Source: a virus (lineage: Duplodnaviria > Caudoviricetes). From it: DNA of 64,000 bases. The translations under genes were made by a program, and so were the position numbers. The stretch lies in the IMG/VR virus record IMGVR_UViG_3300028635_000004, positions 1 to 64,000 of that record. One strand, given 5' to 3'. The notes below the pieces were generated by a model. That model worked only from the letters and a program-made list of their open reading frames with translations, was not told the origin of the DNA and did not search any database. Shown piece after piece: positions 3,577 through 30,700 of the stretch (the first letter of the stretch is position 1; the number at the start of each line of letters is the position of its first letter).

Positions 3577-4272
3577 ATGATTGAATTTACAACATTAGAT
3601 ACTATAACTACAGACTTGCTAAATATAATAAGGAATTTTAATGTATCCCGTAGTGAAGATATATCCAAACGTCAATTAGAGATGTGGGTACATCAACACA
3701 GAGCTTTGCTCATTAAACAAGACATTGATAAGGGTAAGTTACCTAATCCTGATTATATACAGACAATTCCATCTTTACAATTAGAAGTTGTAGATGAGTC
3801 AGAGGGCGGAGATATAGAAACTAATTCATATATTTTAAGGACAGAATTAGAAATACCTAATACTCTAGATTTTAATTTTAAATCAGGTTTTACATATATA
3901 GGTACAATAGACGGTCATGAGATTCAATTTATACCAGAGGGTAGGCGTAAGTGGCAACAGTATAAGAAATATACTAAAAATGATAACTTAGCATTCCTTA
4001 GGGACAATAGACTTTATCTTATATATCCAAAGCCAATTCATCAGATTACAGTGAGGGGAATATTTGAAGTACCTACAGAGGTTATGAATATTGTTAATCC
4101 TCATCATACACCTACAGAAGGTGGTTGGTCTGATCCCTACCCAATTCCTATCAATATGTTACCTACTCTTAAAGAAATGATACTTAAGAAAGAGTTAGGC
4201 ATTGGTGTATCCGCTTTAAGCGATAACAAAAATGATAGTGCTAACTTTGTATCAAAGGATACAATAACTTAG
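3577..4272 (+). CDS. crAss-like tail ring protein
   Basis: Position before the IHF-like, ring and muzzle genes; ITVRGIFEVP and YPIP motifs typical of crAss ring proteins. Confidence 0.65.
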   Translation: MIEFTTLDTITTDLLNIIRNFNVSRSEDISKRQLEMWVHQHRALLIKQDIDKGKLPNPDYIQTIPSLQLEVVDESEGGDIETNSYILRTELEIPNTLDFNFKSGFTYIGTIDGHEIQFIPEGRRKWQQYKKYTKNDNLAFLRDNRLYLIYPKPIHQITVRGIFEVPTEVMNIVNPHHTPTEGGWSDPYPIPINMLPTLKEMILKKELGIGVSALSDNKNDSANFVSKDTIT

Positions 4273-4276
4273 AAAC

Positions 4277-4744
4277 ATGTCGAAATTTTATGGTAGAGGT
4301 AAAAATGTGATTCAACAACCTTACACCTTGCCAGATATGTATCAAGCTTATATTAAAGACATACCAAAAGAATCAGCCTACTATGTTACGTATAACGAAT
4401 ACGCTAAGATAGTAGGTTTATTTTATAAAGAGGTGTCTAATAAAATAATACAGCAAGGTGAATTATTCCATATGCCTTTTAGGTTGGGGGACACATATGT
4501 AGAAAAAAAGAAAGTAGATTATAATAACAGACCTCCTATAGATTGGCAAATGACTACAGCAATGGGGAAAGTTATTTATAATTTTAATGAACACTCAGCT
4601 GGTTATAAGTATGAATTAAAATGGAATAAACGTAATAGTATATTCCGTAATGTTTATTTATATAGGTTGGTGTACACTCGTGCAAATAAACGTGCTGTAG
4701 CTAAATGTGTTAAGAGTCGTACAATTGATTATTTTGAAAAATAA
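4277..4744 (+). CDS. IHF/HU-like protein of the crAss tail module
   Basis: EYAKIVGLFYKEVSNKII.QGELFHMPFRLG resembles the HU/IHF fold; conserved synteny. Confidence 0.6.
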   Translation: MSKFYGRGKNVIQQPYTLPDMYQAYIKDIPKESAYYVTYNEYAKIVGLFYKEVSNKIIQQGELFHMPFRLGDTYVEKKKVDYNNRPPIDWQMTTAMGKVIYNFNEHSAGYKYELKWNKRNSIFRNVYLYRLVYTRANKRAVAKCVKSRTIDYFEK

Positions 4745-12318: not shown

Positions 12319-14211
12319 ATGGCACGTATAAATCGCTATGACTCCCCAGCGGAGAGTAATTATTTTAATACATTTGTTCCTCTACCATTAGATCAGATTA
12401 CTGTTCTTGGTATGAAGCGTCAAGAAGACCTTGAGCGTAAACAGGACTTTGCTTATAAGACTTTAGATGAGGCATCATTGATAGACTATATACCTACATC
12501 GCATGATGAGTATAGGGTTAAGAATGAATTTTTACCAGAGATACAAAGACTTGCTGAAGAAGCAATGTCTGTAGATTTGAGTAATCCTGTTGAATGGGCT
12601 AAGTATTCTACAAGGATTAAACGTTTAGCTTTATCAGATGATATAAAACGTATAGAACAATCTGCTGCTGCCCATAGACAAGCTTTAGCAATTGCTGCAG
12701 AACAAAAGATGAAAGGTGTATATAATCCTTTATTAGATGACACTGCTAATTTAGCTAAAGGGTGGGATAGTAGAACTAATATATTTAGTTATGTTCCAGA
12801 GTCTCAAATAAATAAAGCAGAATTATTTGCACCTTATTATAGAGATTTAGCTCACCAAAGCAGGTATGGTGAAATGAATGGCATCAAGGGTCAGTGGGTT
12901 GGTATTAGCAGGTCTAGGGTTAACGAAGTTGCTGCACAAGCTGCGCAAGAACTTATGGGTACTCCTGGTGGTCAACAAATAGTTAGGTTGGCTCTTACTA
13001 CAAACCCAACGTTATATGAAGGAAAAGATCCATATGATATACTTAGGATGCAAATGACTGACTATGGTATGCAAAAATACGGTGAAACTTTCCATGCATT
13101 TCCTGAATTTGCGCAAGGTATTGGTGATGGTAAAGTACCATTAGTAAGTAGTTGGTCACCAACAGCAACTCCTGGTACGAGCGGTAAATATAGGATGGAC
13201 CCGTCTGGTGTATTAGGCGGCTTATATTCCGGTGGTGATTCTGGCGAAGGTGATGAACCAGTTAGTGGAAAAGATTTATGGAAAGGAGCTATGTCCGCTG
13301 CAGGTAAAGCTGCTATGTCAGGCGGTCAATATCTAGATATGACAGATTATAGTAAAGCTGGACTTACTGAAGAAGGTGAAAATAAAAGAGTTAGTAAGAT
13401 ATTAAGTGACTTCCCAGAGTTACAATTTGATAATAAAGGTAAGAAGTTAACAAATAGGCAAATCATGGAGAGGTATAGGCAATTATCTAAAAACCCAATG
13501 GGTGGTGCTATTTATACTTCCAATGATCCAGAAACAAACGCCCTTTTAGATGATCTATTAGATAATAAATTTACTACGTTTAAATACTTAATACCAGGTA
13601 CAAATGAAGTTCTTAATGTTAGGGAGGCTGCAAAAAAACTTATTGGTACTACAGATGTTGATGAATTTAGGAAATCAATGAGGCCGGCCGGTCCTTCATT
13701 TGATTTACCTTATGGTATGGCTATACAGATATCACCTAGTAAGAAAAATAAGTATGCTAGAGGTACAGAGGAAGCTGGTAATCAAATAGTAGCAGTTGGT
13801 GATATTGCTATTGAAAATGAATTAGCTAATATAAGGAATATAAAACATATGGTTGAGACTGGTGGCAGAGGTCCTGTTATGTTAGCTACAGACGAGACTG
13901 GAACTATGTATGGCGTAGATATAGGGTGGCGAGTTGGTGAAAGAAATGGCAAAGAGGGTTTCGTACCGACTTATAAAATGGTTACATCTAAACCAGATGG
14001 TACATATGATTATGTTTATCAAACTGACAAACAAGGTAATGTAATACTTGATGAGCAAGGTAATCCTATACCAATGATGACAAATATGGATGATATATTT
14101 AAAGTAATTGTAGATAATATGTTTAAGGGACAGGGGCTTTCGCCCTATGACGTTAATTTAGGTCAATCCGTTAGTTCTACAGCTAGGAGAGTAGTTAGAT
14201 CAGGTAGGTAA
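12319..14211 (+). CDS. Ejected cargo protein 2
   Basis: MARINRYD...FVPLP N-terminus; lies between cargo 1 and the virion RNAP. Confidence 0.6.
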   Translation: MARINRYDSPAESNYFNTFVPLPLDQITVLGMKRQEDLERKQDFAYKTLDEASLIDYIPTSHDEYRVKNEFLPEIQRLAEEAMSVDLSNPVEWAKYSTRIKRLALSDDIKRIEQSAAAHRQALAIAAEQKMKGVYNPLLDDTANLAKGWDSRTNIFSYVPESQINKAELFAPYYRDLAHQSRYGEMNGIKGQWVGISRSRVNEVAAQAAQELMGTPGGQQIVRLALTTNPTLYEGKDPYDILRMQMTDYGMQKYGETFHAFPEFAQGIGDGKVPLVSSWSPTATPGTSGKYRMDPSGVLGGLYSGGDSGEGDEPVSGKDLWKGAMSAAGKAAMSGGQYLDMTDYSKAGLTEEGENKRVSKILSDFPELQFDNKGKKLTNRQIMERYRQLSKNPMGGAIYTSNDPETNALLDDLLDNKFTTFKYLIPGTNEVLNVREAAKKLIGTTDVDEFRKSMRPAGPSFDLPYGMAIQISPSKKNKYARGTEEAGNQIVAVGDIAIENELANIRNIKHMVETGGRGPVMLATDETGTMYGVDIGWRVGERNGKEGFVPTYKMVTSKPDGTYDYVYQTDKQGNVILDEQGNPIPMMTNMDDIFKVIVDNMFKGQGLSPYDVNLGQSVSSTARRVVRSGR

Positions 14212-14221
14212 TATTTGAATT

Positions 14222-17200
14222 ATGGCAAAGAGATTGTTATATGATACTGTTACTGGTACCGATTCTATGGTTAATCCAGGTACAGAAACTTATTTTAAAT
14301 TTCCAGACAACCTTAGACCAATCCCCGGTGAATATTTTGATGACTTTGCTGGTGATCCATATAGGCCTTTAAGTTTATACGGGGTTGGGGAATCTAGATT
14401 TGATAAAGGTTTGACCTACTTAGATGAACCATTTCTACAAAACATTAGGGCTTCTAGACAGGGCCCTATTGCTCAATTAGGTTCATCTTTTACACAAGCC
14501 GTTATAGGGGAAATAGTTGGTGGTACTATTGAAGGTGTTGGTTATCTATTTGAACTAGGTGAATTTAATGATTTGTTATCTGGTGAAGACGAAGAATTTG
14601 GTAATGCCGTTAGTAGATTTGGTAAATCAATGAGGGAAGGCATTAGGGAAAAACTTCCTGTGTATGAATATGACTATCGTGAAGGTCAGTTTAGACCATG
14701 GGATTGGTCTTGGTGGATGACCAATGGTCCTTCAATTGCCTCTACTATTGCTCTAATGGTTCCTTCGGGCGCTGTTGCAGCTATACCAGGGAGGTTAGCA
14801 AAAGGTTTATCGTATATTGGTAAATTTAATAGTGTTATTAGGGCTGGTAGAACTACTGGTGAAGCAGCAGCATTGGCAAACAGGGCTTCTACAAATGTTT
14901 CAAGAGTTGTAGCTGGTACTACTCAAGCCATTGTATCTAGGAAGATGGAGAGTATGATGGAAGCTGCTGGTACATACGACGATGCTTATGAATTAGCTAT
15001 AAGTGCTGGTAAGTCTGAAGAGGAAGCTAGGATTATTGCAGCTAAAGCAGCTAAAGCCAACTATGTAGCTAACTGGGCAATGCTAGCACAAGATGTTCCA
15101 CAATATTTATTGCTTAATAAATATATAGGTAAGTTTTCAACTAAGTCTGCTGAAAGGGCTGCACAGAAACTAGGTGCTGCGGCTAAAAAAGAGATGGGTC
15201 AAAAGGTATCATTTAAGGATTATATACCATCATTAAGTTCAACCTATAATATAGGCAAAGATATGCTTGGTGAAGCTGGTGAAGAAGCATACCAGTATTT
15301 CTCAAATCAATATGGTATGTATATAGCAGAACGCATGATTAACCCAGATCTTGATGTATCATTTGTACCATGGATGAAGGAGAATATTGATACAGGGGAA
15401 TTATTAACAAGTGCTTTCTTTGGTGCTATCGGTGCTGGCTTTATGCATGGTGTTGGTCGTCCAGTAATGGATAGGATGCGCGGTGTTGAAAATGAGCAAG
15501 TGCTTGAAGTAAGGTCAATGGCAGAGCGTTATGCTACTATAGGTAAGAATATACTCAATGCTCAAAAGGTTGGCGATGATTATAGGCTCACTATGGAGTT
15601 AAGCAAGGGTGGTGTTGAACTTGGTATCAGGGCTGCTATGTATAACTCTAAGGAGCTAATGGACTCTTTCATGGACTTAGTAGACTCTGGTGAGTTTTCA
15701 ACTGCTTCAAAAGACTTACAAGATTTTGCTGCTAGTGAGGAAGGTAAAGCTATTATCGCTCAAGACAAAAAGAATGCTAAGGAAATAAAGAAGTATGCAC
15801 AAATGGCCTATGATACTTATAATGAGGTTATGGGTCAAATAAACCAAGAAGGTCATACATTTAATAAAGGGTACAAAAAGGCATTAGACAACCTTAAAAA
15901 AACAGGGCGTCAAGTTGATCCCGAATGGTATAAGAAAGCATTAGCATCTGTAATGACATCGGCTTCTATAAATAAAAATATAGTTGATGATAAAGTACAG
16001 GAGCTTTCTACTGAATTTCAGGCGTCAAAGGAAAAATACACCAAAAGTGCAAACCAAGTATTTAATTCATTAAGTGATCTTGGTCGTCAATTAGTATTCC
16101 TTGAAGCTGAACTTGATGCATTGAAGGATGTAAGGGCCAAGACTGAAAAAGCACACCCAGAAGATATTGTAAATAAATTAAGCGACAATCAAAAGAAAGA
16201 CCTTGAAAGTTGGTATAAGACTAATCAAGATATGACAAGTGCCATTGAGCAACATATAAATCAATTAAAGGATAGTTATTCTGATGAAGATAAAGCTAAC
16301 GATTCTACAATTAAAGTTAATAAAAAGGACCTTACTGAGTATAGGGATTTTGGTGCAAGACTTTATCATTTGAAGAAAGACTCCTACATTCTTGGTAGGA
16401 TGTTAAAGCGTTATAATGATGGTGAACTATTAAGCGAAGCTGAGATTGAAAAGTATGCTAAGGAGTTTGCTGAACGTCAGGAAGAGTATTATGAAAATGG
16501 TTTTCAAATAGGTGATACTGTTACAGTTGGTAAGGATGGCCCTACGGCTACTATAGAGAATATTATATTTATTAATGGTAAACCTGTATATACTGTTAGG
16601 GAATTTACTACAGACGAAGATGGCAATGTAGAAAGTGCTACTGATACACAAGACTACGATGAAGATGATTTGTGGGCATATGGTACTTCTACTCAACTTA
16701 AAGCAGAGTTAGTAGATACAGTATCTTCTACAATAAATGAACCTAATAATGACCCACAAGCTGAAATTAGGCAACGGTTACACAAAGGTGGGTTAAATGA
16801 TCCATTGACTACTATTGCTGATATGATATCTATGGTTCATATTGAACCCACAGCTATTAATCAATTAGTTCACAGAGATCCTAAATTAAATTCTTTACTT
16901 AGCACACCATTTTCTGAAAATCCCAACTTTAGTAAAATATTAGCTAATAGTAGGGTAGAGTATACTATAGATCTTAGTGACAAGCAAAAGTTTTGGGTAA
17001 AACATAAGGCCCTTAAAGATAATATTATTGCTATTCAAACTAATAAAAAAGCTACTGCTAAAACTAAAGACAAACAAATCAAAGCTTTATTAGACTCTTT
17101 ACATAAGGGGATTGATACTAATCAATTTAATCATGTAATTGATACTATTCCTATCAAGGTTGCTGTAATAATAAAAGATGGTGATCAAGAAACCAGATAT

Positions 17201-20200
17201 GATGGCAATGATGAGTATAATCTTTATGTACATAACTCTGACTTTTGGAACATAGCTGCCCCATTATCTATTCTTTTAAAGGGTGATGACAAAGCAAGCG
17301 AGGAGTATATATTAGAACAAAGGATTGGTACTCGCGAATTTAGGTTTACTTTATTAGAAGAGTTATTAAGGTCAGATATAGCTGTAGCGAATAACCTTGA
17401 AAGACTTGGCGGTCACTTAAATAGGGTTTCTACATATGGTACTATACACGAAAGACTTGGGGACGACCTTACTGATGTAGACCTGTGGGTTGGTATTACT
17501 GATACAGACGGTATTGCATATCCTTTTGTAGAATCTGGTGTTAGGGGACAATGGGAGACTGTACCAGGTAGTGTATTATTTAGGACAAACAAAACACTTA
17601 CTGGTGAAGAAATATTTGTACCTGCTACAATATCATCTTTATCCAAAGAACATGCTGAGATAATATGGGACTGTTATTTAATTTTAGCAGCTGGTTTTCC
17701 ATACTCTTCAAAGTTAAATAGAGATGATATTAAGAATGCTACAGTAGGTGAGATACTTGACTTGTTAGTTACACAAGGTGAGAAGGTATCAAACTTAATG
17801 CAAGACGAGAATCAAATATTATATTTAAAGGGTAGACAAGAGTTACACTTTGGTAAGCACATTATTAAAGATATAACTAAAGCCACTGATGCACAACGCG
17901 GTGAATTCATTAAATGGGCTAATCAACATAAGAAATATAAAGTACCGTTTGCTGTTAAGGGTTTAGGTTTTAGACTTAACTCAAAATATAAGACTAGGAC
18001 TGGCATTAAAATTGGTTCATTTGAACTTAAGCCAAATGATGATAGGACCTGGGCTCAAATGATGATGAGCACTCCTATATCTACTGGTAAAGCTGGTAAT
18101 AGGTATGCTGTTGTTACTAACGTTGAAAGAGTTGTAGACGAAAAGACTGGTGAATTTAAGGAGAGTATAATTCATTCTCCATCATTAAAGGTTAGGGACT
18201 TAGACGTTAAAGGTTACAATAGGGATTCTACTACAAAAGAACCAGTTACACCAGTTACACCAGAGCCTACAGTTGATGTTACACCTACTACTGAACCTGT
18301 TGCTAATAGTTTAGACGAAATACTTGGTTCTATCGAAGTTATAGGTGGTGACGATGCTGTTGTTGGGTTTTATAGGAATAAGGAAGTTGAAACAACAACT
18401 GAAACTGTATCTGATGCTGAGTTTACTTGGTTGAAGAACAGACTAAAGAGTGGTGCTACTGTTGAGATGTCAGACCGTTTTATAGAGATTGTTAAAGACG
18501 GTCAGTCAAAACAAGCTTATGGCGCATTTAAAGCCAGTGCTATATATCTCTATAGTGGTGCTGTAAAGGGTACTATATATCATGAAGCATTCCATAGGGT
18601 ATCTTTAGGTTACTTATCAGACGAAGAGCGTGAGCGTTTCTATAATAATGCAAGGGTTAAATATAATATGCCCGATGCTACTGATAGTGAAATTGAAGAG
18701 AAACTTGCTGAAGAATTTAGGTTGTGGCGTAATCACAAAGAATTAAACGCTGAAATTGAAGGTGTTTCTATATTTGATTGGGTTAAGAATTTATTTAACT
18801 TTATTAAACATTATTTTACTGGTGCCAATGCTATACAGAATTATGAAGTAGAAACATTGTTTAAGTTAATAGATCGTGGTGCATTTAAATATCATAAGAT
18901 CAAGCGTTCAAGGTTAAAGGAGTTAGCTAATGTTGAGGCACCGTTAGAGCTTAGTACTTTAGGCGAAGGCTTCTACGATGTACCATTTGTTAATACACGT
19001 GCTGAGTTTGAAGATTTCATTAAAGGTCTTGGTACAATACTTATTATACAAAACGATATAAGGGACTTAGCAGACGTTAAGTCAATGAACTTTCAAAGAA
19101 TGTTTAGTTACATCTATGATAAGTTTATACCAACTCGTGAAAAGACTGTAGTAAATTTAAAGAATTATTTAGCTGCTGGTAAGTTTAAGGAAGGTGAAAC
19201 AGCAGAACAAATACAAAGTATTATAAATGATTTTGAACGTTCTATAGCATTATATGAATCAATAAAAGAACCCAAGTATCAAAAGATATATATGAGTCAT
19301 TTAAAGAAAGTATTAAGGACTGAGTATGGCATTAATGTTATATCAAAGGATGATAGTGACTTATTAATAGACGAGGACGAAGAGACTATGTCACCTCAAG
19401 AGTTAATAACAAGGTATAGCAAAGAGTCTTTTGAACTTAATATTGTTGATAATGTAACAGCTAATGTTAAGTACTTAATCTCTATATTACCTAAGTCTTC
19501 AAAGATCAATCCTATAACTGGTACATATGAGTTTGTTAAGTTTAAGGAGACATTTGATAGTTTATTGTTTCACTTATACAACTTAGACTCTTTGGAAGAG
19601 ATGTTAGACAAGTTGGAAGAGCTTGGTAAAACCAATCATGCTTTCTCTGTACTACATAAGCGGTTGGTTCGTGGTTCACCTAACTTAAGAAATCAATTTA
19701 AGGTTGCTATGAGTAAGCATAAACATTTATATATCAACTTTACATACACCAGGGATTATGGTAAGTATGATACTCCTATATATCAAATATTTAGGGCTGA
19801 TGTTAACAGAGCTGAAGAAGCTGAGAAGTATGACTGGGCTGAACAATTCCTTATGTCAGAATATATGGATCATGGGGAAAAGGTAGGAGACGTGCAAAAG
19901 CTCAATATAGAACGACTTACCAAGGTTTATGAGGATTATGTTAGCTTTGAGAAGGAAGTGCGTAGAAACGCACGAAAACAGCTCTCAGCGGAGGAATTAG
20001 GTGCTTATGCTGATAGGTTCATAGAATTAGTACGTGCAGTAAGGATTGACATTGACAAGACTATCCTTGATGCATATATAGCTGGTAAGGTTAGGGCTGC
20101 TGGTCGTAAGTCTTTTGGTGTTAAGGAAGCATTAGTAAACTTAATTACAAGCGAATTTACATCACAACCAGGTCGTGAAGAGGATCCTGCTGGTTACTTC

Positions 20201-23200
20201 TACAGGTTAAAATTATTAGCTGGTAAAGCATTAGACCATGAGAAAGCTGTAGCAGAACGTAAGAAAGGTGCTCGTGCCATAGAGTATGATCTTGATGCTG
20301 ATATAAGGTCTATCTACTTAGGTAAAGATAGTGTATATGCTATTAGGGAGTTAGCTAGGAAGCGTTATGAAGTTTATCCAGACTTACTTAGTGATATTGT
20401 AATAGGACCTGAAGGACATCAGTACTATACTTATTCATTAAGGACATATACTTCAGACCGTATTAAACAATTAAAGGATAAGGCATTTGTAGATCGTAAA
20501 CTTAATAAGGTTGGTAATAGGCATAGTATATTCCTACAACAGTTATCCAATGATCAAAATGTTAGGGACGCTGTTAATATTAAAACAATGTCTTCATTCC
20601 AAGAACGCGATGCACATGACTCTGGTCAATCATACTCTGATATAAATACTATAGAGGACTATATCCTAAGGTTAGGTGCATTGCATAATTATGATACACT
20701 TGTGCCATTCCCAATTATAGCAGACCGTACTACATATTATTTCTTAGAGGGGTTTGATATACCTAAGAATTTATATGAACTTAATACTGAAACTGGTGAA
20801 CTTGAGTTTACAGACGAGATATTAAGTATCTTCATGGGTTATGCTGAGGATGAACGTGAACGTATTAAAGATGCTAAAGATGTAATTAAACGATATAAAG
20901 CTGCCGTTAAACGTAAGGACGGCAGTGACCTTGATATTCTTAAGAATGAAATGGTGTTAAATTATCACTATAAATTAAAAGGTGATCAAATAATACCAGA
21001 GAGCGCCAATGCCATTAAATACATTGAATTTAGTGAGTTCAATAAGCGTGGTTTTGATTTTGAAAGGGATGCTCGTAACTTAATTATAGAGCACCTAAAG
21101 AAAGTTGTAGACTTTGGTATGGAAAGGGCTGAGAAGCTTGGTGTTTATACTACAGAGATAGATAGGGAAGATGATTCTATAGTTTATAGGAACAATTTAT
21201 TAGACAGGAATGTATTTGCTAACTATGCAGATACGTATGGTACTTATGAGAAAGCTATTCGAGCTATTATAGCATTCAATGAAATAGGTATGATTATATC
21301 AAACTTTGAAATTAATAAGATATTTACTGGTGCCCCTGCATTCTATAAAGGTGATGAAACAAAGTCTATACAACAGGACAGGATTAAACGTTTGATGGTT
21401 CTTACATCTAGCGGTGATCCTATACATCAAAAGACAACAGATAAAGGTGTTATAGACGATGCTTTTACAATGGCATCATTGGCTACTCAAAAACTCAATA
21501 TGTCTCGTGGTGAATATAATAATCAAGATCCTTCAAATTATTATCATACCCTTAGGAACTTATTAATTGTTCGTTATTCACAATTACTTGTTAGTGAAAT
21601 AAAGTATAAAGACAAAGAGTTATACAATAAGCATGCTAATATTTTATATGAGGACTACATCATTGAGAAAGATGGTGTTGAAACATTTGACTCTAATAAA
21701 ATAGACAACCTTGAGAAAACTGTATTAAGGGGTGCATTTGGTATTGATATCAATGATATACTTGAACCATATAGGAATATAGACAGTACAGATGGTCAAG
21801 CTTATGTATCTCCTACAATGTATAGGTCTATGCTTATACAATTAGGTGAGTGGCCTGATTGGAAAGAGAGAGCCTATAATAATATTATGAGTAGGCGTAA
21901 CTGGGACGATTTAACTACTGAAGAGAAGGATGAGCTGCTTAAATTCTACATGCAGCCACTTAAACCTGTGTTTTTTGACCTTGTTGATCGAGGTAATATA
22001 GAAGTACCAGTATATCTTAAGATGTCTGTAATGCCTTTATTCCCTGGTCTAGTGGATGGTACTAAACTCGAAGACCTTGCTAATAGGATGGAAGCTATTG
22101 GTAGGTATGCTGGTCAGAATAAGATAGACATGGTTACTTATGATAGCGCCGTTAAGGTTGGTTTGGGTTATACTGCTCCGTTATATAGTAATCAGTATAC
22201 AGAAGAATTAAGTGATTTAAATGATTTACATTATACATCATTACCATTATCATCATTAAGGAGACAATTAGTTACAGATCCGCATGATATTAAAGAAACT
22301 AAATTAGGCACTCAGGTTATAAAAATTAACCTAGCTGACTTAATGTTAGACGAACATGTGTACAATATACCTGGCGTGGAAGATTCTATTACTGGTAGAG
22401 AATTAGCAAATATTGTATTTAATTGTTTAGCATCTGTTAGTGATAAGGGTCTTGCTAAACTTAAAGAAAGAATTGGTTATAATGATGTAACCAAACAAGT
22501 AGACTTGCAATTGCTTACTAAATCACTTAGGGAAGATGCTATCAAAAGCAATATGCCTGATATGATTGTAGATGCACTTAGGGTTGAAGGAGATGGGTTA
22601 TATCTTGAACTCGACTCATTTAGCAATAGGAAACAAATATTCAATAGACTTATTGGTGATGTTGCCAGGAATACCATTGACATTGAGATGCCTGGTAATC
22701 AATTTATACAGCTGTCTACAACAGGTATAACTACAACTTCATCTGATAATCTTAAGTGGTATAAACTTGATATGGATGGTAATGTTAAAGCGGCAGAATG
22801 TGCTATATCTATTACTTTATTCAAACATCTTATACCTAATTATAAAGATATAAGTTTTAAGGAAGCAAGTGATTATGTATTAAAACATATACCTGAGATA
22901 TTGGTATATCGTATTCCTACACAAGGTCAATCATCTGCTATGTATCTAAAGGTGGCTAAATTGTTACCAGAACAAGTAGGCGATACTATAGTACTACCAA
23001 AGGCTGTTACTGCATTAACTGGTTCAGACTTTGATATTGATAAAATGTTTGCAGTTAGGCATTCATACTTTGTTAATGAAAAAGGTGAACTTGAAAAGAT
23101 TAAATTCTTTGATAAAGAAATAGATGGTGTATCACCGCAAGAATTAGCGTTTGAACATCAACATAGGCGTATTATATCGCAATATACTCAGCAAATAAGG

Positions 23201-26200
23201 GAGTTACAAAAAAAGTTATTTGATGAAAATGTTCCTCAGGCAGAGAAAACTACTCAATTGAGAATGTTTATAGATTCTGCAATAGAAGTTATGCCCGAAT
23301 CAATGCAAGTTGAATTAAGGGATATCTTGTTAGAAATGGAGATGGCAGAGTTCTATGAGGAATGGGTTGGTATAAAGACTGCTAAACGTTTATCAGATCT
23401 ATTAGACAAGTGGAATTATGATAGCGCTAAGGCTGAGTTCTTAGAGAAGTATAAAGAAGCATCCCCATATGAGTATAACTCTGAACAAGCCATTAAGAAT
23501 AGGTTATTAGATGCTTATTTGTCTATATATAAGAATTCTAACAATATACAACAATCACAATCGCCACTTGGTGCTTATAAGAAAGAGCTTACTACATTGG
23601 CTGGTAATATAACCGAAGAGGATAGCGGCAGCATGTTTCATATTTATTCTGCAACAAATCAAAATATATTAAAGTTTGAATATACCGGTGGTGGGGATGG
23701 CATTGGGCCATCTGCATTAAACAATGTACATCATGTGTTGTCTCAATTAGCTGGTTTGAAATATAGGGGTGCGTCATTTGGTTTATTAAATAGGGACAAA
23801 GCCGGTAGGATAGATTTAAGTGGTAAATTAGGTGTAGACCATAAGAGCATTATGGCTTGGCTGTCTACATTGATTGATGCTCACGTAGATTTAGCTAAGG
23901 ATAATTATATTATGAAACTTAATGTTAACTCTGCTACATATAACTTTGTTATGTTTATGATTAGGGCAGGGTTTGGTCTTGACACATTTAAGTTAGTATC
24001 ACAGCCTATAATTAAAGACTTGGCCAATAGGATTAATTGTTCTGGTAGGTATAGCAAGATGTCATTATATGGCAGTAAAAAAGCTGCTATGAGTAAAACT
24101 ATGCAGTATTGGGAAGACTTACTGTCAGATAAAGCTAAAGAAGAATATAAAGAATTTAGACTTAGGAAGAAAGAAGTATATCAATTTATACGTACTGAGA
24201 AAGCACTTGAAAAGGATTATTTAAATACTAAGGTTGAAAATCTCAAGGGCGATGAAAGAGACGCATTTGTGCTTCATCAGTTAAAGATACTCCATATTTA
24301 TAATCATTTTAACAAGATGGGCGAGGCTCTCAATAACTTTGTACAGATATCACAAATTGATACAAAGAAATTTGGTCGTAGTGTTACAGACATTATTCAT
24401 TTCCAAAAGAGAGTTAATGACTTTAAAGCTGATAATAAGTTTGTAAACGCTGATATATTATTCCCAACTAACCCATCAGAGATTAGGAACGGTCAATCGT
24501 TATTAGGTCCATATTATAAGAACTCTATACTATTCCTATTAGATGTATTACCTGGTTTAACTATGTATGCGTCTCCTGGGTTTATAGAGATAGTTAATAC
24601 TATACTCAATCTCAGTGGCAATGGTGATACATTAAATAAGAAATTAGTTAATACTGTAGCAGACGAAGTATTTGCCGCTATTGTAGGTGATTTCTTCTTT
24701 GATGTAGACGAAGATGGTAACCCTGAAGAGAACTCCTTTGGTTTAAAGAAGAACAATGTTGTTACGGTTATGCGTAATGTAATGGATGTTATAACCAGGG
24801 TTAAGTTCTCTGATGAGCCTATAGCTAAGAGATTTAGGGATAATCCTATATTTAGTTTATTCCTTAAACGTCCATTAGCATCAGAGAGAGGTTTACCATT
24901 TACTTCATACTTAGCTATTACTAGGAAAGCATTCTCAGATGTGTCTGGTACAAATGATTTTATGTATGGTATATTAGACCTATTAAGCGCTACACCTAAG
25001 GATGAGAGTGAAGTTGAAATGATTAAGGAAGTACATAGCTTTGCTCGTTCATTATTTGTGTATAGCTACCTTAATTCAGGGTTTAGGAATAGGTTACACT
25101 CATTCTTTAATGTTATACCACCAGTATTATTTAAGTCATTAACAACTGGTAAACGCGAAAGAACATTATCCTATAATGAATTTATTAAGGGTAAGAAAGA
25201 ATTATTTGCAAGCGAACTTAATACTGCATTATCTGTATATGTAGATAGGGTGTTCACTAATACATGGTCAAATAAAATGCTTGTACCCAGTGTTGCTGGC
25301 AATGATATAACAGATATATTACCTAACATAATGGTTCCCAAAAAGGATCCTAAGACAGGTGAAATTACTAAAGATTGGCTTGATGTAGATGGTGATCAAA
25401 ATATAGATAAATACTTCCCGCCAAAAGTTTATATTTTAGGTGATGGTTCAAGTGAGGGTAGCAGTGTTAAACGTAGGTTCTACTTAGGTAAGAATAAGGA
25501 TAATGAACCTGTGTTTGTTAAGTACCTCATCAATTGGGAGTATAGGGACGATAGGATTGACATGTATGGTAATGTAGCTCCTTACTACGAGCCTCATTTA
25601 TTGGAGTATGTGGGTTATATTAAGTCCTATGGTAGTGAAGAAGATGTATATGAAGCTGGTGATTTTGACTATGCGTACTATGAAGCAGAGTCCGACGATG
25701 AAGATTATGCAGAATCAACTGATACTGATGTAGAAGAGACTGTAGAAGAAACCGAAGATAAAAAAGTAGTTATAGTACATCCTGTATATAAAGTTGTTAG
25801 GCGTAACTCATATGAAAAGTCTGGTATAGTTATTAAAGTTCCTGGTATGACGCCAGATAGCTTTATTAAAGGCGCTAATGAGGATAACTTAGTAATAGAA
25901 GATGGTGAAGAAATTGATTACTTTAACAGCCCGCATATACAGTCTAGGATTGATAATAAAGAATTTATACCTGTAACTAATCTTGTTGTGTTTACAAAAC
26001 CAGATCGTGAACGTGAAGAGGGTGATAAGGCACTTGCTGTTATGGCCCAGTCAGGTAAGACAATAACACCTGAGATTGAATCTGAAACACCATTGTTTGA
26101 TGCATTACCAGAAAGGTCTTATGCTCCTACAATGACATATGCTGGTATAGGTAGTAGGGGTACACCTGAGCATATATTACCACTAATGACAGAAGTTGCT

Positions 26201-27727
26201 AAAGAGTTAAGTAAACTTGGTTATATACTTAATACTGGTGACGCAGTTGGCGCAGACTCAGCATTTACTGAAGGGGCGCCAGATGATATGAGACGTGTAT
26301 TCCGCGCATATCACGCTACAAATCTTACAAGATCGATTGCTAAAGAAATACATCCTAATTGGGACGCTTTAATTAGCAAGGGTGAATATGCTGCAAATTT
26401 AATGGCACGTAACACTAACCAAATATTTGGTGCTGAACTTAATTTACCGGTTGATTTTGTTATATTCTGGGCTGAAGAAAGCAGTAACCCGTTGAGACCA
26501 GAGGGTGGTACTGGCCAAGCTGTAGAAATGGCTAGGCGTAAAGGTATACCTACAATCAATATGATAGATGATAATTGGCGTGAACAGTTAGACAATCTAT
26601 TAGCAGAATTAAAGCAACGTAAAGCTGATCTTAAGACACGTAAAGAAACTGAACCTAAGGTGTCTACTTCTACTATAGAAGTTACTAAACTTGGTGCGAC
26701 GCCTATTAAAGCAGCAACCGATAAGTATACTAGGGAATCTGTTATGAAAGATACAGACTCATTATATATATTTACAGATAATACTGATAGGACATCTGGC
26801 ACTAAAGCTAATGTCAGTGGTTGGTATGCAGAAAAGTATGGGGAAGGATTATCATATGGTACAGATCGTAACCCAACTACTGCTGTAATTAGGGGCTTAG
26901 ATAATGCATATCCTATAAGTACTATGAAATGGTTCTATAGGAAACATAACGTTAGTGTTGAAGAAGCCAGATGGACAGATGAAGAATTTGATGAGTTTAA
27001 AGAAACTATAGATGACGAGATAGATCAAATAAAGAAAGCAATTAATAGTGGCAAATTTAAACAAATTATAATTCCCATGGGTGATGGTTTCTTTAATACT
27101 AGGATTTCTAATATTACTGAAGAAAGAACTCCCAATATATATAAATATCTAAAAAATAAGTTAGCAGAGTTAAAATCAATTGGAACTATAGACGAACCTA
27201 TAAAAATTGCTAGTAAAAAAATTAAAAATCATTCGATGGTTTATTCAATGCCAGGTAAGGACAATATTACTGGCGTAGATACTTCTACTATTGAGATGTG
27301 TGAGATTGGTCTACGAACTGCTACAACCAGATCATATCCACTTGGTGAAGTTGGGGATATAATAACATTTGCTGATAGGCCTCAAAAATATATAATTACT
27401 GATATTGAACAACTTACAGAAGAAAAGGTTACTGATCCAAAGTGGGTAGAAAAGTGGTCTGATAAGGAAGGATGGACTACAAAATATTTCTATTCTCATC
27501 TTAATAAAAAAGGATCTGCTGTAAAGACTGGTAATTATCAGACATCGTTTAAAAAGATTAGTGATGCTGAAATTGCAGAAACTATTCGCACAAGTGAAAT
27601 TACACCAGAACTTGTAGCAAGAATTAATGATAAATTCAAAAATAAAGAAGGCTTTATTCCTTATAGTGCAGAGGATTTAATGAATATGCCAGCTAGAGAA
27701 TTTAATAATATTATAAAGTGCTTATAA
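14222..27727 (+). CDS. Giant virion RNA polymerase polyprotein (4501 aa) with zincin domain and C-terminal accessory domains
   Basis: Catalytic ALTGSDFDIDK (DFDID at 23027-23041), DSTDGQ and RIPTQG motifs, zincin HEAFH at 18581-18595, and C-terminal SLOG/macro-like/ASCH-like domains. Confidence 0.9.
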   Translation: MAKRLLYDTVTGTDSMVNPGTETYFKFPDNLRPIPGEYFDDFAGDPYRPLSLYGVGESRFDKGLTYLDEPFLQNIRASRQGPIAQLGSSFTQAVIGEIVGGTIEGVGYLFELGEFNDLLSGEDEEFGNAVSRFGKSMREGIREKLPVYEYDYREGQFRPWDWSWWMTNGPSIASTIALMVPSGAVAAIPGRLAKGLSYIGKFNSVIRAGRTTGEAAALANRASTNVSRVVAGTTQAIVSRKMESMMEAAGTYDDAYELAISAGKSEEEARIIAAKAAKANYVANWAMLAQDVPQYLLLNKYIGKFSTKSAERAAQKLGAAAKKEMGQKVSFKDYIPSLSSTYNIGKDMLGEAGEEAYQYFSNQYGMYIAERMINPDLDVSFVPWMKENIDTGELLTSAFFGAIGAGFMHGVGRPVMDRMRGVENEQVLEVRSMAERYATIGKNILNAQKVGDDYRLTMELSKGGVELGIRAAMYNSKELMDSFMDLVDSGEFSTASKDLQDFAASEEGKAIIAQDKKNAKEIKKYAQMAYDTYNEVMGQINQEGHTFNKGYKKALDNLKKTGRQVDPEWYKKALASVMTSASINKNIVDDKVQELSTEFQASKEKYTKSANQVFNSLSDLGRQLVFLEAELDALKDVRAKTEKAHPEDIVNKLSDNQKKDLESWYKTNQDMTSAIEQHINQLKDSYSDEDKANDSTIKVNKKDLTEYRDFGARLYHLKKDSYILGRMLKRYNDGELLSEAEIEKYAKEFAERQEEYYENGFQIGDTVTVGKDGPTATIENIIFINGKPVYTVREFTTDEDGNVESATDTQDYDEDDLWAYGTSTQLKAELVDTVSSTINEPNNDPQAEIRQRLHKGGLNDPLTTIADMISMVHIEPTAINQLVHRDPKLNSLLSTPFSENPNFSKILANSRVEYTIDLSDKQKFWVKHKALKDNIIAIQTNKKATAKTKDKQIKALLDSLHKGIDTNQFNHVIDTIPIKVAVIIKDGDQETRYDGNDEYNLYVHNSDFWNIAAPLSILLKGDDKASEEYILEQRIGTREFRFTLLEELLRSDIAVANNLERLGGHLNRVSTYGTIHERLGDDLTDVDLWVGITDTDGIAYPFVESGVRGQWETVPGSVLFRTNKTLTGEEIFVPATISSLSKEHAEIIWDCYLILAAGFPYSSKLNRDDIKNATVGEILDLLVTQGEKVSNLMQDENQILYLKGRQELHFGKHIIKDITKATDAQRGEFIKWANQHKKYKVPFAVKGLGFRLNSKYKTRTGIKIGSFELKPNDDRTWAQMMMSTPISTGKAGNRYAVVTNVERVVDEKTGEFKESIIHSPSLKVRDLDVKGYNRDSTTKEPVTPVTPEPTVDVTPTTEPVANSLDEILGSIEVIGGDDAVVGFYRNKEVETTTETVSDAEFTWLKNRLKSGATVEMSDRFIEIVKDGQSKQAYGAFKASAIYLYSGAVKGTIYHEAFHRVSLGYLSDEERERFYNNARVKYNMPDATDSEIEEKLAEEFRLWRNHKELNAEIEGVSIFDWVKNLFNFIKHYFTGANAIQNYEVETLFKLIDRGAFKYHKIKRSRLKELANVEAPLELSTLGEGFYDVPFVNTRAEFEDFIKGLGTILIIQNDIRDLADVKSMNFQRMFSYIYDKFIPTREKTVVNLKNYLAAGKFKEGETAEQIQSIINDFERSIALYESIKEPKYQKIYMSHLKKVLRTEYGINVISKDDSDLLIDEDEETMSPQELITRYSKESFELNIVDNVTANVKYLISILPKSSKINPITGTYEFVKFKETFDSLLFHLYNLDSLEEMLDKLEELGKTNHAFSVLHKRLVRGSPNLRNQFKVAMSKHKHLYINFTYTRDYGKYDTPIYQIFRADVNRAEEAEKYDWAEQFLMSEYMDHGEKVGDVQKLNIERLTKVYEDYVSFEKEVRRNARKQLSAEELGAYADRFIELVRAVRIDIDKTILDAYIAGKVRAAGRKSFGVKEALVNLITSEFTSQPGREEDPAGYFYRLKLLAGKALDHEKAVAERKKGARAIEYDLDADIRSIYLGKDSVYAIRELARKRYEVYPDLLSDIVIGPEGHQYYTYSLRTYTSDRIKQLKDKAFVDRKLNKVGNRHSIFLQQLSNDQNVRDAVNIKTMSSFQERDAHDSGQSYSDINTIEDYILRLGALHNYDTLVPFPIIADRTTYYFLEGFDIPKNLYELNTETGELEFTDEILSIFMGYAEDERERIKDAKDVIKRYKAAVKRKDGSDLDILKNEMVLNYHYKLKGDQIIPESANAIKYIEFSEFNKRGFDFERDARNLIIEHLKKVVDFGMERAEKLGVYTTEIDREDDSIVYRNNLLDRNVFANYADTYGTYEKAIRAIIAFNEIGMIISNFEINKIFTGAPAFYKGDETKSIQQDRIKRLMVLTSSGDPIHQKTTDKGVIDDAFTMASLATQKLNMSRGEYNNQDPSNYYHTLRNLLIVRYSQLLVSEIKYKDKELYNKHANILYEDYIIEKDGVETFDSNKIDNLEKTVLRGAFGIDINDILEPYRNIDSTDGQAYVSPTMYRSMLIQLGEWPDWKERAYNNIMSRRNWDDLTTEEKDELLKFYMQPLKPVFFDLVDRGNIEVPVYLKMSVMPLFPGLVDGTKLEDLANRMEAIGRYAGQNKIDMVTYDSAVKVGLGYTAPLYSNQYTEELSDLNDLHYTSLPLSSLRRQLVTDPHDIKETKLGTQVIKINLADLMLDEHVYNIPGVEDSITGRELANIVFNCLASVSDKGLAKLKERIGYNDVTKQVDLQLLTKSLREDAIKSNMPDMIVDALRVEGDGLYLELDSFSNRKQIFNRLIGDVARNTIDIEMPGNQFIQLSTTGITTTSSDNLKWYKLDMDGNVKAAECAISITLFKHLIPNYKDISFKEASDYVLKHIPEILVYRIPTQGQSSAMYLKVAKLLPEQVGDTIVLPKAVTALTGSDFDIDKMFAVRHSYFVNEKGELEKIKFFDKEIDGVSPQELAFEHQHRRIISQYTQQIRELQKKLFDENVPQAEKTTQLRMFIDSAIEVMPESMQVELRDILLEMEMAEFYEEWVGIKTAKRLSDLLDKWNYDSAKAEFLEKYKEASPYEYNSEQAIKNRLLDAYLSIYKNSNNIQQSQSPLGAYKKELTTLAGNITEEDSGSMFHIYSATNQNILKFEYTGGGDGIGPSALNNVHHVLSQLAGLKYRGASFGLLNRDKAGRIDLSGKLGVDHKSIMAWLSTLIDAHVDLAKDNYIMKLNVNSATYNFVMFMIRAGFGLDTFKLVSQPIIKDLANRINCSGRYSKMSLYGSKKAAMSKTMQYWEDLLSDKAKEEYKEFRLRKKEVYQFIRTEKALEKDYLNTKVENLKGDERDAFVLHQLKILHIYNHFNKMGEALNNFVQISQIDTKKFGRSVTDIIHFQKRVNDFKADNKFVNADILFPTNPSEIRNGQSLLGPYYKNSILFLLDVLPGLTMYASPGFIEIVNTILNLSGNGDTLNKKLVNTVADEVFAAIVGDFFFDVDEDGNPEENSFGLKKNNVVTVMRNVMDVITRVKFSDEPIAKRFRDNPIFSLFLKRPLASERGLPFTSYLAITRKAFSDVSGTNDFMYGILDLLSATPKDESEVEMIKEVHSFARSLFVYSYLNSGFRNRLHSFFNVIPPVLFKSLTTGKRERTLSYNEFIKGKKELFASELNTALSVYVDRVFTNTWSNKMLVPSVAGNDITDILPNIMVPKKDPKTGEITKDWLDVDGDQNIDKYFPPKVYILGDGSSEGSSVKRRFYLGKNKDNEPVFVKYLINWEYRDDRIDMYGNVAPYYEPHLLEYVGYIKSYGSEEDVYEAGDFDYAYYEAESDDEDYAESTDTDVEETVEETEDKKVVIVHPVYKVVRRNSYEKSGIVIKVPGMTPDSFIKGANEDNLVIEDGEEIDYFNSPHIQSRIDNKEFIPVTNLVVFTKPDREREEGDKALAVMAQSGKTITPEIESETPLFDALPERSYAPTMTYAGIGSRGTPEHILPLMTEVAKELSKLGYILNTGDAVGADSAFTEGAPDDMRRVFRAYHATNLTRSIAKEIHPNWDALISKGEYAANLMARNTNQIFGAELNLPVDFVIFWAEESSNPLRPEGGTGQAVEMARRKGIPTINMIDDNWREQLDNLLAELKQRKADLKTRKETEPKVSTSTIEVTKLGATPIKAATDKYTRESVMKDTDSLYIFTDNTDRTSGTKANVSGWYAEKYGEGLSYGTDRNPTTAVIRGLDNAYPISTMKWFYRKHNVSVEEARWTDEEFDEFKETIDDEIDQIKKAINSGKFKQIIIPMGDGFFNTRISNITEERTPNIYKYLKNKLAELKSIGTIDEPIKIASKKIKNHSMVYSMPGKDNITGVDTSTIEMCEIGLRTATTRSYPLGEVGDIITFADRPQKYIITDIEQLTEEKVTDPKWVEKWSDKEGWTTKYFYSHLNKKGSAVKTGNYQTSFKKISDAEIAETIRTSEITPELVARINDKFKNKEGFIPYSAEDLMNMPAREFNNIIKCL

Positions 27728-27728
27728 C

Positions 27729-30700
27729 ATGATTAAGTGTGTTAACATTAATCACCCTGATTTTGATCGGCTGCTAAAGGATTCAGGAATGGATCCTATA
27801 GCTTTGTCAGCTGAAATGGGGGTTTGGATGGAAGAGAATAATACAGACGAGTGGCCTACTTTAGAACAATTGGGTATAATCAAGAAGAAGTCTTCTTTTA
27901 TTTCAGATAGATTTAAAGATTTATTAAGTTCAAAAGACGATATTGCTATTAAAGATATTGAACAGTTTATCAAAGGTTTAGCCAATACATTCTCTAGTAA
28001 GAAATATGGTGGTCACTATACTGTACGCAGGGATGATATAATGCAAGTTGGTTTTAATCAAGCGCAACGAGCGAGGGATATTGTAGCAGAGATTAATAGG
28101 ATTGTACCAGATTTATTATATTTACAAGATAACCCCATATATTATAGGAATCAACAAACAGGACAATACTTAATAAATAAAGATACTGGTGAACGTGTTG
28201 CTCGTGGTGATGTATGGACAAAAGTAATTATAAGTGAAACAGCATTAAAACGTTACCTTGCATCAAGGTCTCAGTTATCATTTGACTTTGATCAACCCAA
28301 AGGACTTAGCGAGGATGATGTAAAGAGTATTGAGGATACAATGCCTGAATTTAAAGGACTTATTGGTGACACATTACCAATGGAGTTTGACCAATTTGAA
28401 AATCCCGAAGCTGATCCTAAGTTAGTCAACCTTATATATGCAGAGGCTAAGAAAGTGGGTGAATTACTTGATGGGCAAGGTGATACTGCTAGACCAATGG
28501 CTTTATTAGATGCTATAGAAGATAAGGTTGGTTTATCAGAAGTTAATGCTGAACATAAGAAACTTATTCAAGATTCACTTGGTGATTTGGCTGATATAGA
28601 GTTTAAGATTATAAAGAGGATTGATTTACATAGCTTAGCTGGTGGTGCATTTAGGAAACATATACATGATTATGGTTTCACTCACATTAGTGCTAAGGAT
28701 AATACACGTACTATATATTTAATTAAAGACAACCTTGATGTACCTGGCCATGGTACATTTGACCTGTTAGCTTCTACAATATTACACGAGTTATATCATG
28801 GTATATTATTTAATGCTATAGACAATCCTACAAGTGAAGCTGAACGTGAATTATCCAATGAGGTTAATAAGTTATTTAAAGCAGCAAAATCACAGACTAC
28901 GTTTACTACACATGCTGCATATAAGAATGTACAAGAGTTTGTATCATATGGTTTAACAGATCATAAGATTGTATCAGAACTTAAGGATATGAAGTATAAC
29001 TGGTGGCAACGTTTTATACGTGCTATAGTTAATTTCTTTACTAGGTTTACTGATGCTGGTGAAGGTGGTAAATCACTTACATATTATGACTCTTTATATA
29101 ATGCCGTATTTGGTTATATTAGTAAGCAACGTACTATTAAACCTGTATTAAATGGTGAAGTAACATTGGCAGCCGGTGAGCCTATAAAATGGTTAAGTGG
29201 TATAACTGGCTTAAGAACTACATATGAGAACGCTAAGTTAATTGCTAATAATTTTAATAGAACTTTAAAATCATATCATAATTTCCTTGCTAATGTATCA
29301 CCAAACGAAGCTGAATTTATAACTACGGAGCATGGTCAAAACATAATGGGTTTCTCTGGTGTACCATCAGATTTAATTGCCAAACAAAAAGACCTATCAA
29401 AATTCAAATATAATAATGTTTATGCTACTATTAGGGAAGCTGTAATGAATTATGAAGGCAGAGCTAAGATTGTAGATAAAGAAGCATTAATAAGTATGTT
29501 AGAGAATAGATTTGGTAAGAATGCTGCTGTAGTTACTAATGTATTTGTACACAATATAGATAGGAGAATGTATGATGTCATAGACTTTGTTGTTGTACAT
29601 AGCGATGATGCTAGCAAAGGTTCTATTGTATATAGCTTTGTAGACTTCTATGAATCAAATGGTGAAATGGCTACATTTGAAGATGTTGTTAAACTTGATA
29701 AGAAGAAGGGATTATATAAACCTATGGCTTGGAGTGATAGGTTGGATATGAGACTTAGCTGGGCAAATATAATGTTTAAGCATAAGTTTTATGTTGAAAG
29801 ACAAGGTCCTGATATCTTATTTGACGCCCACAGTTTAAATGTAATACCAATAGCAGAAGATAATGAAGGCAATGCTAGATTAGATGGTGATATAACAGAA
29901 GTAAAGATGTCTGGTATGGGTCACTTCTTCTGGCGTGATAGTTTTGATAAAGCGCGTGCTCAAGCATTTGAAGAATATCAATCGGATATAGACATTGAAT
30001 TATCAGATGAAGTAGAAGATTATACTAAGGAGTACTTCAATAGGATAGAGTTAGAGATGCATACGTTAAAAGAGGATCAAAAGCTAGTATACGATGCTAT
30101 AAAGATGTTACATAGACGTGGTCTTGTTAGTAGGGCGTTTGGTCGTAGGTTAGCTACTGTTGAAATTAGTGGCTTACTTAAGACTTTAATAACTGAGCAC
30201 GAGGAATCACAGAGAGCTATAACGTCATTGGTAGAATACATCTATAAAGAGTTAACTAAGGCTTTTGCTATGCTGCAGGAAACAGATATGCAAAATAAGA
30301 AAATCAATAAGAATACATTAACCGCCTTCTATAACATGACTAAGTCGTTTGAGATAATAAACGATATTGCGTCATACTTTATGATTATAGAGAAGGATAC
30401 TCCTGAGCTAAAAAACTTAGATTTAAAGATAAAGGAGAGTATAAGCTGCTTGGCGTATATTAAAACCGCTTACAAAAATAGGGCTATAAACTTGTTAGTA
30501 GATTTCCTTGCGCCTTACTATAGTAGGATAAAGAATGAACAATTAGAAAAGTATGCTAATGACTATAGGAGGTTTAAGTATTGGCTAAGTCGCATTGAAA
30601 AGGGTGATGAACGATATACAAAATATGATTATCATCGTAGAGTACCTAGCAACTTTAACCCAGACTTTACCGAGGAAGAATATGTAGCATCGCAGTATAA

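Follow-up and report, generated by a model that had tools for sequence, protein, structure and literature searches.

The window analysed here is the first 64 kb (positions 1 to 64,000) of the 90,327-bp phage record IMGVR_UViG_3300028635_000004 from IMG/VR, which is rated 86% complete. It contains a single open reading frame (ORF) of 4501 amino acids (aa) in which the predicted RNA polymerase of the virion is followed by a C-terminal cassette of three further domains, termed D1 (SLOG), D2 (DUF7831) and D3 (ASCH), and by a short tip. Here we describe this cassette, its variation among related phages and the role that its domains may play at the onset of infection.

The giant polymerase gene and its cassette

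The features of the gene are as follows.

14222..27727, + strand: giant ORF of 4501 aa, a single open frame; crAss-type virion RNA polymerase with C-terminal cassette
21755..23080, + strand: RNA polymerase catalytic region, aa 2512-2953, defined by the phmmer match to 6VR4
23027-23041, + strand: DFDID motif, aa 2936
26129..26626, + strand: D1, SLOG domain of the DprA clade, aa 3970-4135
26627..26719, + strand: linker 1, aa 4136-4166, charged and partly disordered
26720..27157, + strand: D2, DUF7831 domain with a weakly macro-like alpha/beta fold, aa 4167-4312
27158..27211, + strand: linker 2, aa 4313-4330, with a predicted local distance difference test (pLDDT) value <50 at model residues 184-192
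27212..27565, + strand: D3, YqfB-like ASCH domain with the octapeptide G-L-R-T-A-T-T-R, aa 4331-4448
27566..27724, + strand: C-terminal tip of about 50 residues, aa 4449-4501, helical, ending in ...NNIIKCL, with the cysteine (Cys) codon at 27719-27721
18581..18595, + strand: HEAFH, aa 1454, N-terminal to the polymerase, the sole HExxH found in the protein by motif search

Residues 2512-2953 match gp66 of phage phi14:2 (PDB 6VR4) in a phmmer search (E 3.9e-47), and the DFDxD catalytic motif of the gp66 family is present as DFDID at aa 2936. Because of this motif and the 6VR4 match, the 4501-aa protein is classed as a crAss-type virion RNA polymerase. Its polymerase core matched 102 Crassvirales records in GenBank, with identities of up to 38%; no close relatives turned up in IMG/VR when it was scanned with the RNA polymerase as anchor. 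Genes for virion structural proteins precede the giant ORF and an ORF of 1889 aa comes after it, an arrangement described as the 'transcription/cargo' block of these phages (PMC7886860; bioRxiv 10.1101/2020.03.07.982082).

The polymerase body is followed by four modules, the domains D1, D2 and D3 and the C-terminal tip. All motifs from which the original prediction had derived a three-enzyme cassette lie in one frame, that of ORF 14222-27727. For D1 these are YAGIGSRGTP at aa 3973 (window position 26138), TGDAVGAD at 4005, ARNTNQIFG at 4062 and GGTGQA at 4095; for D2, LYIFTDN at aa 4181 (window position 26762), TAVIRGLDNAYPIST at 4220 and IIIPMGDG at 4282; and for D3, GLRTATTR at aa 4363 (window position 27308), VGDIITF at 4377 and KEGW at 4415, with NNIIKCL as the C-terminus of the protein (aa 4495-4501). 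The coordinates given in that prediction are off by no more than about 30 bases; the exception is the D1 end, placed there at about 26580 and here at 26626.

The existence of the three domains is far beyond chance. The two AlphaFold models computed for them have mean pLDDT values of 86.7 (D1) and 86.6 (the two-domain model that includes D2), and the inter-domain linkers are of low confidence. In linker 1, the pLDDT is <50 at model residues 1-4 and 10-18 (aa 4140-4157), its initial part forms a helix in the D1 model, and the stretch is missing or different in relatives. Each of D1, D2 and D3 is also found as a free-standing protein. According to the models, the three are autonomous folded modules, arranged like beads on flexible linkers.

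Two further elements of the gene were considered. The HEAFH sequence at aa 1454 is a possible zincin-like metallopeptidase site, and a zincin domain has been described for this gene block (bioRxiv 10.1101/2020.03.07.982082); a profile search yielded no match for it. Zincin-like metallopeptidase domains are common in polyvalent proteins. An antisense ORF of 163 aa (26311-26802, - strand) lies wholly within the coding sequence of D1 and D2, has nothing in its support and is most likely spurious as a gene.

The three domains and their families

D1 matches the PHROG family phrog_768, annotated as 'DprA-like DNA recombination-mediator protein', with an E value of 3e-44. The Pfam family DprA (PF02481) scored 11.5 bits, below its cut-off of 29.6 (E 0.17), with the first motif alone covered, and a search of NCBIfam with D1 gave no match. 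The AlphaFold model of D1, for which an alignment of 15 IMG/VR relatives served as input (pLDDT 86.7, predicted template modelling score 0.83), shows a Rossmann-like alpha/beta fold of the SLOG type. In its Foldseek ranking, DprA of H. pylori comes first (E 6.5e-5), followed by ThsA, ShosA, MoCo carrier and YpsA. This ranking and the PHROG 768 match together confirm the SLOG/DprA-like assignment that the motifs had suggested. The grouping of D1 with the DprA and MoCo-carrier types is no weaker than that with LOG enzymes, and the domain consists of the core of about 165 aa alone, set between linkers and without the flanking domains of DprA. The positions of GSR, GxD, ARN and GG-T/S presumably correspond to the motifs of DprA, which we take as a lead and not as a test. 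The invariant residues of D1 include R18, D51, E81, H83, R102-N-T-N-Q106, D117 and G134-G-T-x-Q138 (alignment numbering) and point to a specific ligand site.

Among 50,697 GenBank phage records, D1 matches 1502, which come from many phage groups and mostly carry it as a small free-standing gene. In the Stenotrophomonas phage Pokken (Schitoviridae), such a D1 homologue is gene 4 (972-1493), situated at the far left end of an N4-like genome and clustered with an adjoining gene for an N4 gp2-like single-stranded DNA-binding protein (SSB) cofactor. From what is known of phage N4, we take this end to hold the early genes transcribed by the injected polymerase. By analogy, the position of the Pokken gene fits a need for the D1 function in the first minutes.

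D2 scores 43 bits with Pfam DUF7831 (PF25176), above the cut-off of 27, and its neighbours in the Atlas and BFVD databases are DUF7831 proteins. A Foldseek search of D2 against the PDB found no solved relative; in a comparison with an exhaustive structural aligner, macrodomains were the best solved-structure matches. Metagenomes commonly contain DUF7831 as a free-standing protein of about 154 aa, and the family is further known from Caulobacter phages, Rhizobium phages and giant viruses of eukaryotes. In many relatives, DUF7831 is fused to NADAR, cpYpsA-type SLOG or ART-PolyVal domains. It occupies the position that Macro holds in viral SLOG-Macro-NADAR combinations (Iyer et al., PMC9503650). 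These fusion partners lend some contextual help to a possible ADP-ribose role of D2.

D3 found no direct match in Pfam or NCBIfam. In a full scan of 1.84 billion representatives, it has 82 representative relatives at E<=1e-3 and 22 at E<=1e-30, most of them within giant proteins, and the family is nearly confined to giant polymerase proteins. Two free-standing members (P0205 and P0218), which match D3 at E 2e-6 and 1e-4, respectively, pass the Pfam ASCH (PF04266) cut-off of 21.2 with 28.4 and 24.2 bits. The ASCH beta-barrel fold of D3 bears out its proposed ASCH/PUA-like nature. Its octapeptide corresponds to G-x-K-x-x-[E/T]-x-R in the Thr-type (YqfB) form, with Arg replacing the catalytic Lys. 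Throughout the family, Arg stands in place of Lys in 70 of the 72 motifs, Thr is kept in 68 of the 72 and the final Arg is kept as well. The octapeptide Lys is essential in YqfB, TthASCH, EOLA1 and TRIP4, that is, in every ASCH enzyme tested (PMC6972931; bioRxiv 10.64898/2026.02.27.708502). Because Arg is the rule in this subfamily, D3 may bind its ligand rather than hydrolyse it, or may perform another chemistry.

The missing Lys bears on the question of whether the modules are directed at the host. Effectors for host take-over would attack host molecules, for instance by stripping N4-acetylcytidine from host tRNA or by destroying nucleotide pools or signals. Such a role has precedents in LOG-type SLOG enzymes, which cleave nucleotides (PMC9503650), and in the ART-PolyVal domains present in relatives, which modify host proteins (PMC5512222). 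D3 lacks the catalytic Lys, however, D1 groups at least as well with DprA and MoCo-carrier types as with LOG enzymes, and there is no direct evidence for a host target; we regard this explanation as quite unlikely.

The non-canonical catalytic motif of D3, and D2 being without known activity, would also suit decayed domains that are retained as spacers or packing material. Inactive filler is highly improbable in view of the high-confidence folds, of the many polar residues that are invariant over relatives just 43-67% identical, and of the persistence of the same modules as free-standing genes in many viruses. That polar residues of D1 and D2 are invariant speaks for a function in ligand binding or catalysis.

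Variation among relatives and the C-terminal cysteine

The content of the region between polymerase body and tip differs among relatives. A protein that is 96% identical (P0002) has all three modules. Two others with 65-70% identity over the N-terminal body (P0004 and P0005) keep D1 and the tip and lack D2 and D3; between D1 and the tip, P0004 has nearly nothing and P0005 about 95 unrelated residues. Over their last ~42 residues, the two show clear homology to the tip of the window protein (...N-[DE]-K-F...[EN]-D-[LI]-x-N-[MA]......C-L), and one IMG/VR locus (L001) ends in the same tip (...NCL). In the IMG/VR loci found via D1, 35, 45, 116, 148, 209, 288, 343, 358, 457, 471, 688 or >1000 aa separate this domain from the stop codon. 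D1 is directly followed by a strong DUF7831 domain (122.5 bits) in L022 and by an AlkB-like oxygenase in L013.

In other giant polymerases, NADAR, AlkB-like, helicase or ART domains are present and the order varies, with PIF1/RecD-type helicase domains as common partners. The order is ASCH-SLOG-NADAR in P0003, NADAR-AlkB-like-SLOG in P0050 and DUF7831-AlkB-like in P0017, the AlkB-like matches in the latter two being slightly below the Pfam cut-off. In P0043, P0018 and P0049, ASCH-DUF7831 or SLOG is located N-terminal of the polymerase. In IAS virus, DUF7831 and a cpYpsA SLOG form a separate gene of 837 aa directly upstream of the polymerase gene, and phage cr130_1 has NADAR (slightly below the Pfam cut-off) and DUF7831 near the end of a giant gene of 5801 aa.

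Among the 50,697 phage records, the polymerase core is found in 102, D2 in five (from four genomes) and D3 in none. Given these counts, that for D1 and the varied content of the relatives, the modules are best described as sporadic accessories and not as core parts of the polymerase. The comparison with relatives and the rarity of D2 and D3 in reference Crassvirales genomes thus bear out the variable payload slot postulated by the original prediction. With three modules here and at least two unrelated effector-type domains in varying architectures among relatives, the proteins have the makeup of polyvalent proteins. The alternative that the cassette is an invariant part of the polymerase was rejected, as D2 and D3 are absent in the closest relatives and rare or absent in phage records.

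The giant gene of phage cr130_1 (NC_055901.1, 13777-31182) contains at least 35 in-frame TAG codons and ends at TAA, and was therefore read with TAG recoded; such recoding has been reported for some crAss-like phages. The giant gene of the window requires no recoding. Giant polymerase genes in GenBank/RefSeq Crassvirales records (H51-H65, H96-H151) bear names taken from an accessory domain or a spurious fold, such as 'DprA-like DNA recombination-mediator protein', 'DNA helicase', 'exonuclease V', 'nuclear pore complex protein-like protein' and 'DUF1768 domain-containing protein'; annotation at the domain level would be more accurate.

The proteins of the cargo block are strikingly poor in Cys. 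The four ORFs of the block (window 10178-33398), located at 10178-12316, 12319-14211, 14222-27727 and 27729-33398, encode 712, 630, 4501 and 1889 aa with 0, 0, 6 and 2 Cys, respectively. This amounts to 0-0.13% Cys, compared with 0.78% for all ORFs of at least 100 aa genome-wide; across the giant relatives the value is 0.09%. Such depletion is expected if a protein has to be unfolded for its passage through the tail. A single one of the six Cys in the giant protein lies in D1-D3. Another, at aa 1151, was considered as the mark of a fusion junction and discarded, as it sits in ordinary sequence.

In contrast to this general depletion, a Cys occurs within the last 8 residues of 108 of the 133 distinct giant relatives, compared with 0.6% of background 8-mers. 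In the window protein this is Cys 4500. With the relatives P0002-P0228 and with L001-L023, L026, L027 and L028 taken into account, such a Cys is nearly universal in crAss-type virion polymerases and occurs in some partner cargo proteins. It is shared by most of the IMG/VR loci and is also present in phi14:2 gp66 (...QECK), in crAss001 gp50, in the IAS virus polymerase and in the separate payload protein of IAS virus. In phi14:2 gp67, the sole Cys is the last residue. We did not find a mention of the C-terminal Cys in the gp66 preprint (bioRxiv 10.1101/2020.03.07.982082). This residue may be a packaging or tethering signal.

Tip and Cys content also speak to whether the cassette enters the host cell at all. 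It might be cleaved from the protein ahead of packaging or in its course, with the zincin-like protease as one candidate, and have a late role in the producing cell or in assembly, being fused for co-expression only. Polyproteins of this block are thought to be cleaved (bioRxiv 10.1101/2020.03.07.982082), the same protein has one HExxH motif, and flexible linkers flank every module. The conserved tip, however, lies at the very C-terminus, past the cassette, in relatives with and without payload, which suggests that the chain end matters for the intact protein. Moreover, the entire cargo block including the cassette is Cys-depleted in the manner of translocated proteins, and the virion polymerase of N4 is packaged unprocessed (PMC5512222). 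We therefore attach a low probability to an undelivered cassette.

Proposed function and relation to known systems

With moderate confidence, we interpret the last ~530 residues as the payload of a polyvalent protein, placed between the polymerase body and the Cys-bearing tip, which enters the cell with the polymerase and blunts host defences. Homologous polymerases and their neighbours are capsid cargo that is ejected into the cell (PMC10172136; bioRxiv 10.1101/2020.03.07.982082). Delivery at injection is inferred from the homology to the virion-packaged polymerases of phi14:2 and crAss001: since the carrier's homologues travel inside the capsid and leave it before or together with the DNA, the modules would be present in the cell at time zero. 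There they would bind or process nucleotides and modified nucleic-acid bases, with ADP-ribose (ADPr)-derived signals, ADP-ribosylated or acylated bases on the incoming DNA, and early transcripts as candidate targets. Host defences using such chemistry, for example DNA ADP-ribosylation of the DarT type or TIR/SLOG signalling, would thereby be blunted.

A role in counter-defence against immunity based on NAD+ or ADP-ribose is a reasonable inference from the domain families and their fusion partners NADAR, ART and cpYpsA. The partners of the modules are enzymes that reverse base modifications or process nucleotides. N4-type virion RNA polymerases fused to effector domains have been classed as polyvalent proteins (PMC5512222). 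For the SLOG, Macro and NADAR domains of viruses, which are found together, a role in processing the ADPr derivatives that host immunity produces has been predicted (PMC9503650).

Several observations weigh against this interpretation. To our knowledge, none of the three domain families has been subjected to biochemical or genetic tests in phages. Searches of the domains against PADLOC, NCBIfam and the sequences of solved structures gave no match; in sequence and profile searches with the cassette, D1 and D2 against solved structures, just designed repeat proteins and other chance matches appeared. The fold Z score of D2 is in a range in which perhaps no more than a common arrangement is shared, Pfam Macro (PF01661) has no match at E<=10 over the entire 90-kb genome, and the comparison of the D2/DUF7831 profile with E. 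coli YmdB as the macrodomain target by hhalign was not significant (probability 0.07). The sole local hhalign alignment places the IIIPMG strand of D2 on the VAFPAI strand of YmdB, which is suggestive and no proof. The macro-like nature originally proposed for D2 accordingly finds backing in the best solved-structure matches and none in the profile comparisons; it is a weak but consistent lead. DUF7831 is the safe name. D3, with Arg instead of the essential Lys, is perhaps no deacylase. The expected cleavage of such polyproteins (bioRxiv 10.1101/2020.03.07.982082) also counts here. Finally, D1 is nearest to DprA, a binder of single-stranded DNA (ssDNA) and loader of RecA, and a role as transcription helper fits this equally well.

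This role is the main rival and a live one, although we consider it rather unlikely. The DprA-like D1 would hold or load the ssDNA template, the ASCH domain would grip nascent RNA or DNA, and the helicase or RNase H modules of relatives would open or clear the template. As a template for gp66, ssDNA is far superior to double-stranded DNA, and QDE-1, a eukaryotic relative of this polymerase, requires an ssDNA-binding protein and a helicase (bioRxiv 10.1101/2020.03.07.982082). Furthermore, PIF1/RecD-type helicases are frequent partners, and the Pokken D1 homologue is clustered with the SSB cofactor gene. On the other hand, gp66 of phi14:2 functions without these domains, the cassette having no match to 6VR4, and D2 and D3 are absent from the closest relatives. 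In addition, the NADAR, AlkB-like and ART partners are base-modification enzymes and not transcription factors, and a shuffled, sporadic occurrence is typical of accessory conflict genes.

A wider version of the payload interpretation is speculative and, taken as a whole, improbable. The virion polymerases of Crassvirales and their cargo partners would constitute a general platform of slot plus Cys tip that packages and ejects any domain placed before the conserved tip. DUF7831 would be a new, highly diverged enzyme of the macro type that removes ADP-ribose from nucleic acid or destroys ADPr signals, and the Arg-type ASCH would provide a new base-deacylating or modified-base-binding activity. 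Jointly, they would keep the ssDNA template of the injected polymerase free of base modifications made by the host.

No other phages of the human gut reach the abundance of Crassvirales, whose relatives are common in other habitats, and next to nothing is known of how they overcome the defences of Bacteroidota. If the payload interpretation is true, the contents of the slot constitute a catalogue of candidate activities for counter-defence or template care in the first minute, which would take in two families without known function, DUF7831 and the Arg-type ASCH. The unrelated virion polymerases of the N4 and crAss types would then have converged on a design of polymerase plus payload. The terminal Cys is a concrete handle on the packing and release of cargo, as it is present in the tractable proteins gp66 and gp67 of phi14:2 and gp50 of crAss001.

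In a literature search with incomplete coverage, confined to text without figures, we found no paper on a payload slot in crAss polymerases, the fold of DUF7831, an Arg-type ASCH subfamily or the conserved tip. The closest known counterpart are the polyvalent proteins, including the N4-type virion RNA polymerases with zincin-like peptidase, ART, lysozyme or RNase domains (Iyer et al. 2017, PMC5512222). Like these, the window protein is a huge chain, virion-associated as judged from its homologues, in which a polymerase is joined, in varying architectures, to several unrelated domains with enzymatic or binding function, and for which early delivery together with the DNA is predicted. Unlike in the N4-type proteins, the carrier is a two-barrel polymerase of the crAss type, which is non-homologous to the T7-like N4 enzyme. 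The payload of SLOG, DUF7831 and ASCH also differs from the cases in that survey, in which none of the three is mentioned and a Cys-bearing tip past the payload is not described.

A second counterpart are the SLOG-Macro-NADAR sets (Iyer et al. 2022, PMC9503650), for which an early deployment against ADPr-based immunity has been predicted. The cassette resembles them in the order of SLOG followed by a macro-like module, and NADAR is present in the relatives P0003, P0050 and cr130_1. In that survey, however, the domains are typically free-standing and most viral SLOGs are YpsA-like, whereas here D1 is DprA-like, DUF7831 takes the 'macro' position and the set is fused to a virion polymerase. Antitoxins of the DarG macrodomain and NADAR types remove ADP-ribose from DNA bases (PMC11543638). 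DarG macrodomains are among the best fold matches of D2, and NADAR is its fusion partner in several relatives (DarG/NADAR antitoxins, PDB 5m3i, 7omu).

Gp66 of phi14:2 and gp50 of crAss001 (Drobysheva et al. 2021; Bayfield et al. 2023, PMC10172136) share with the window protein a homologous core with DFDID, the same cargo gene block and a scarcity of Cys combined with a Cys near the C-terminus. They have 2180 and 2412 aa, respectively, whereas the window protein is a 4501-aa fusion with extra N- and C-terminal parts. The cassette has no match in the 6VR4 sequence, and the phage records matching D2 or D3 include neither crAss001 nor phi14:2.

With regard to the single domains, D1 has the Rossmann-like SLOG fold in common with DprA/Smf, ShosA, the SLOG domain of ThsA, MoCo carrier and LOG proteins. 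It differs from DprA/Smf by the lack of flanking domains and a Pfam DprA score far under the cut-off. D3 differs from the YqfB-type ASCH amidohydrolases, which are N4-acetylcytidine deacetylases (PMC6972931; bioRxiv 10.64898/2026.02.27.708502), in having Arg for Lys, no direct Pfam ASCH match and a distribution nearly restricted to giant polymerase proteins. The principle is already known from polyvalent proteins, from payload-bearing virion polymerases of the N4 type and from SLOG-Macro-NADAR sets; new are the carrier and two domain variants.

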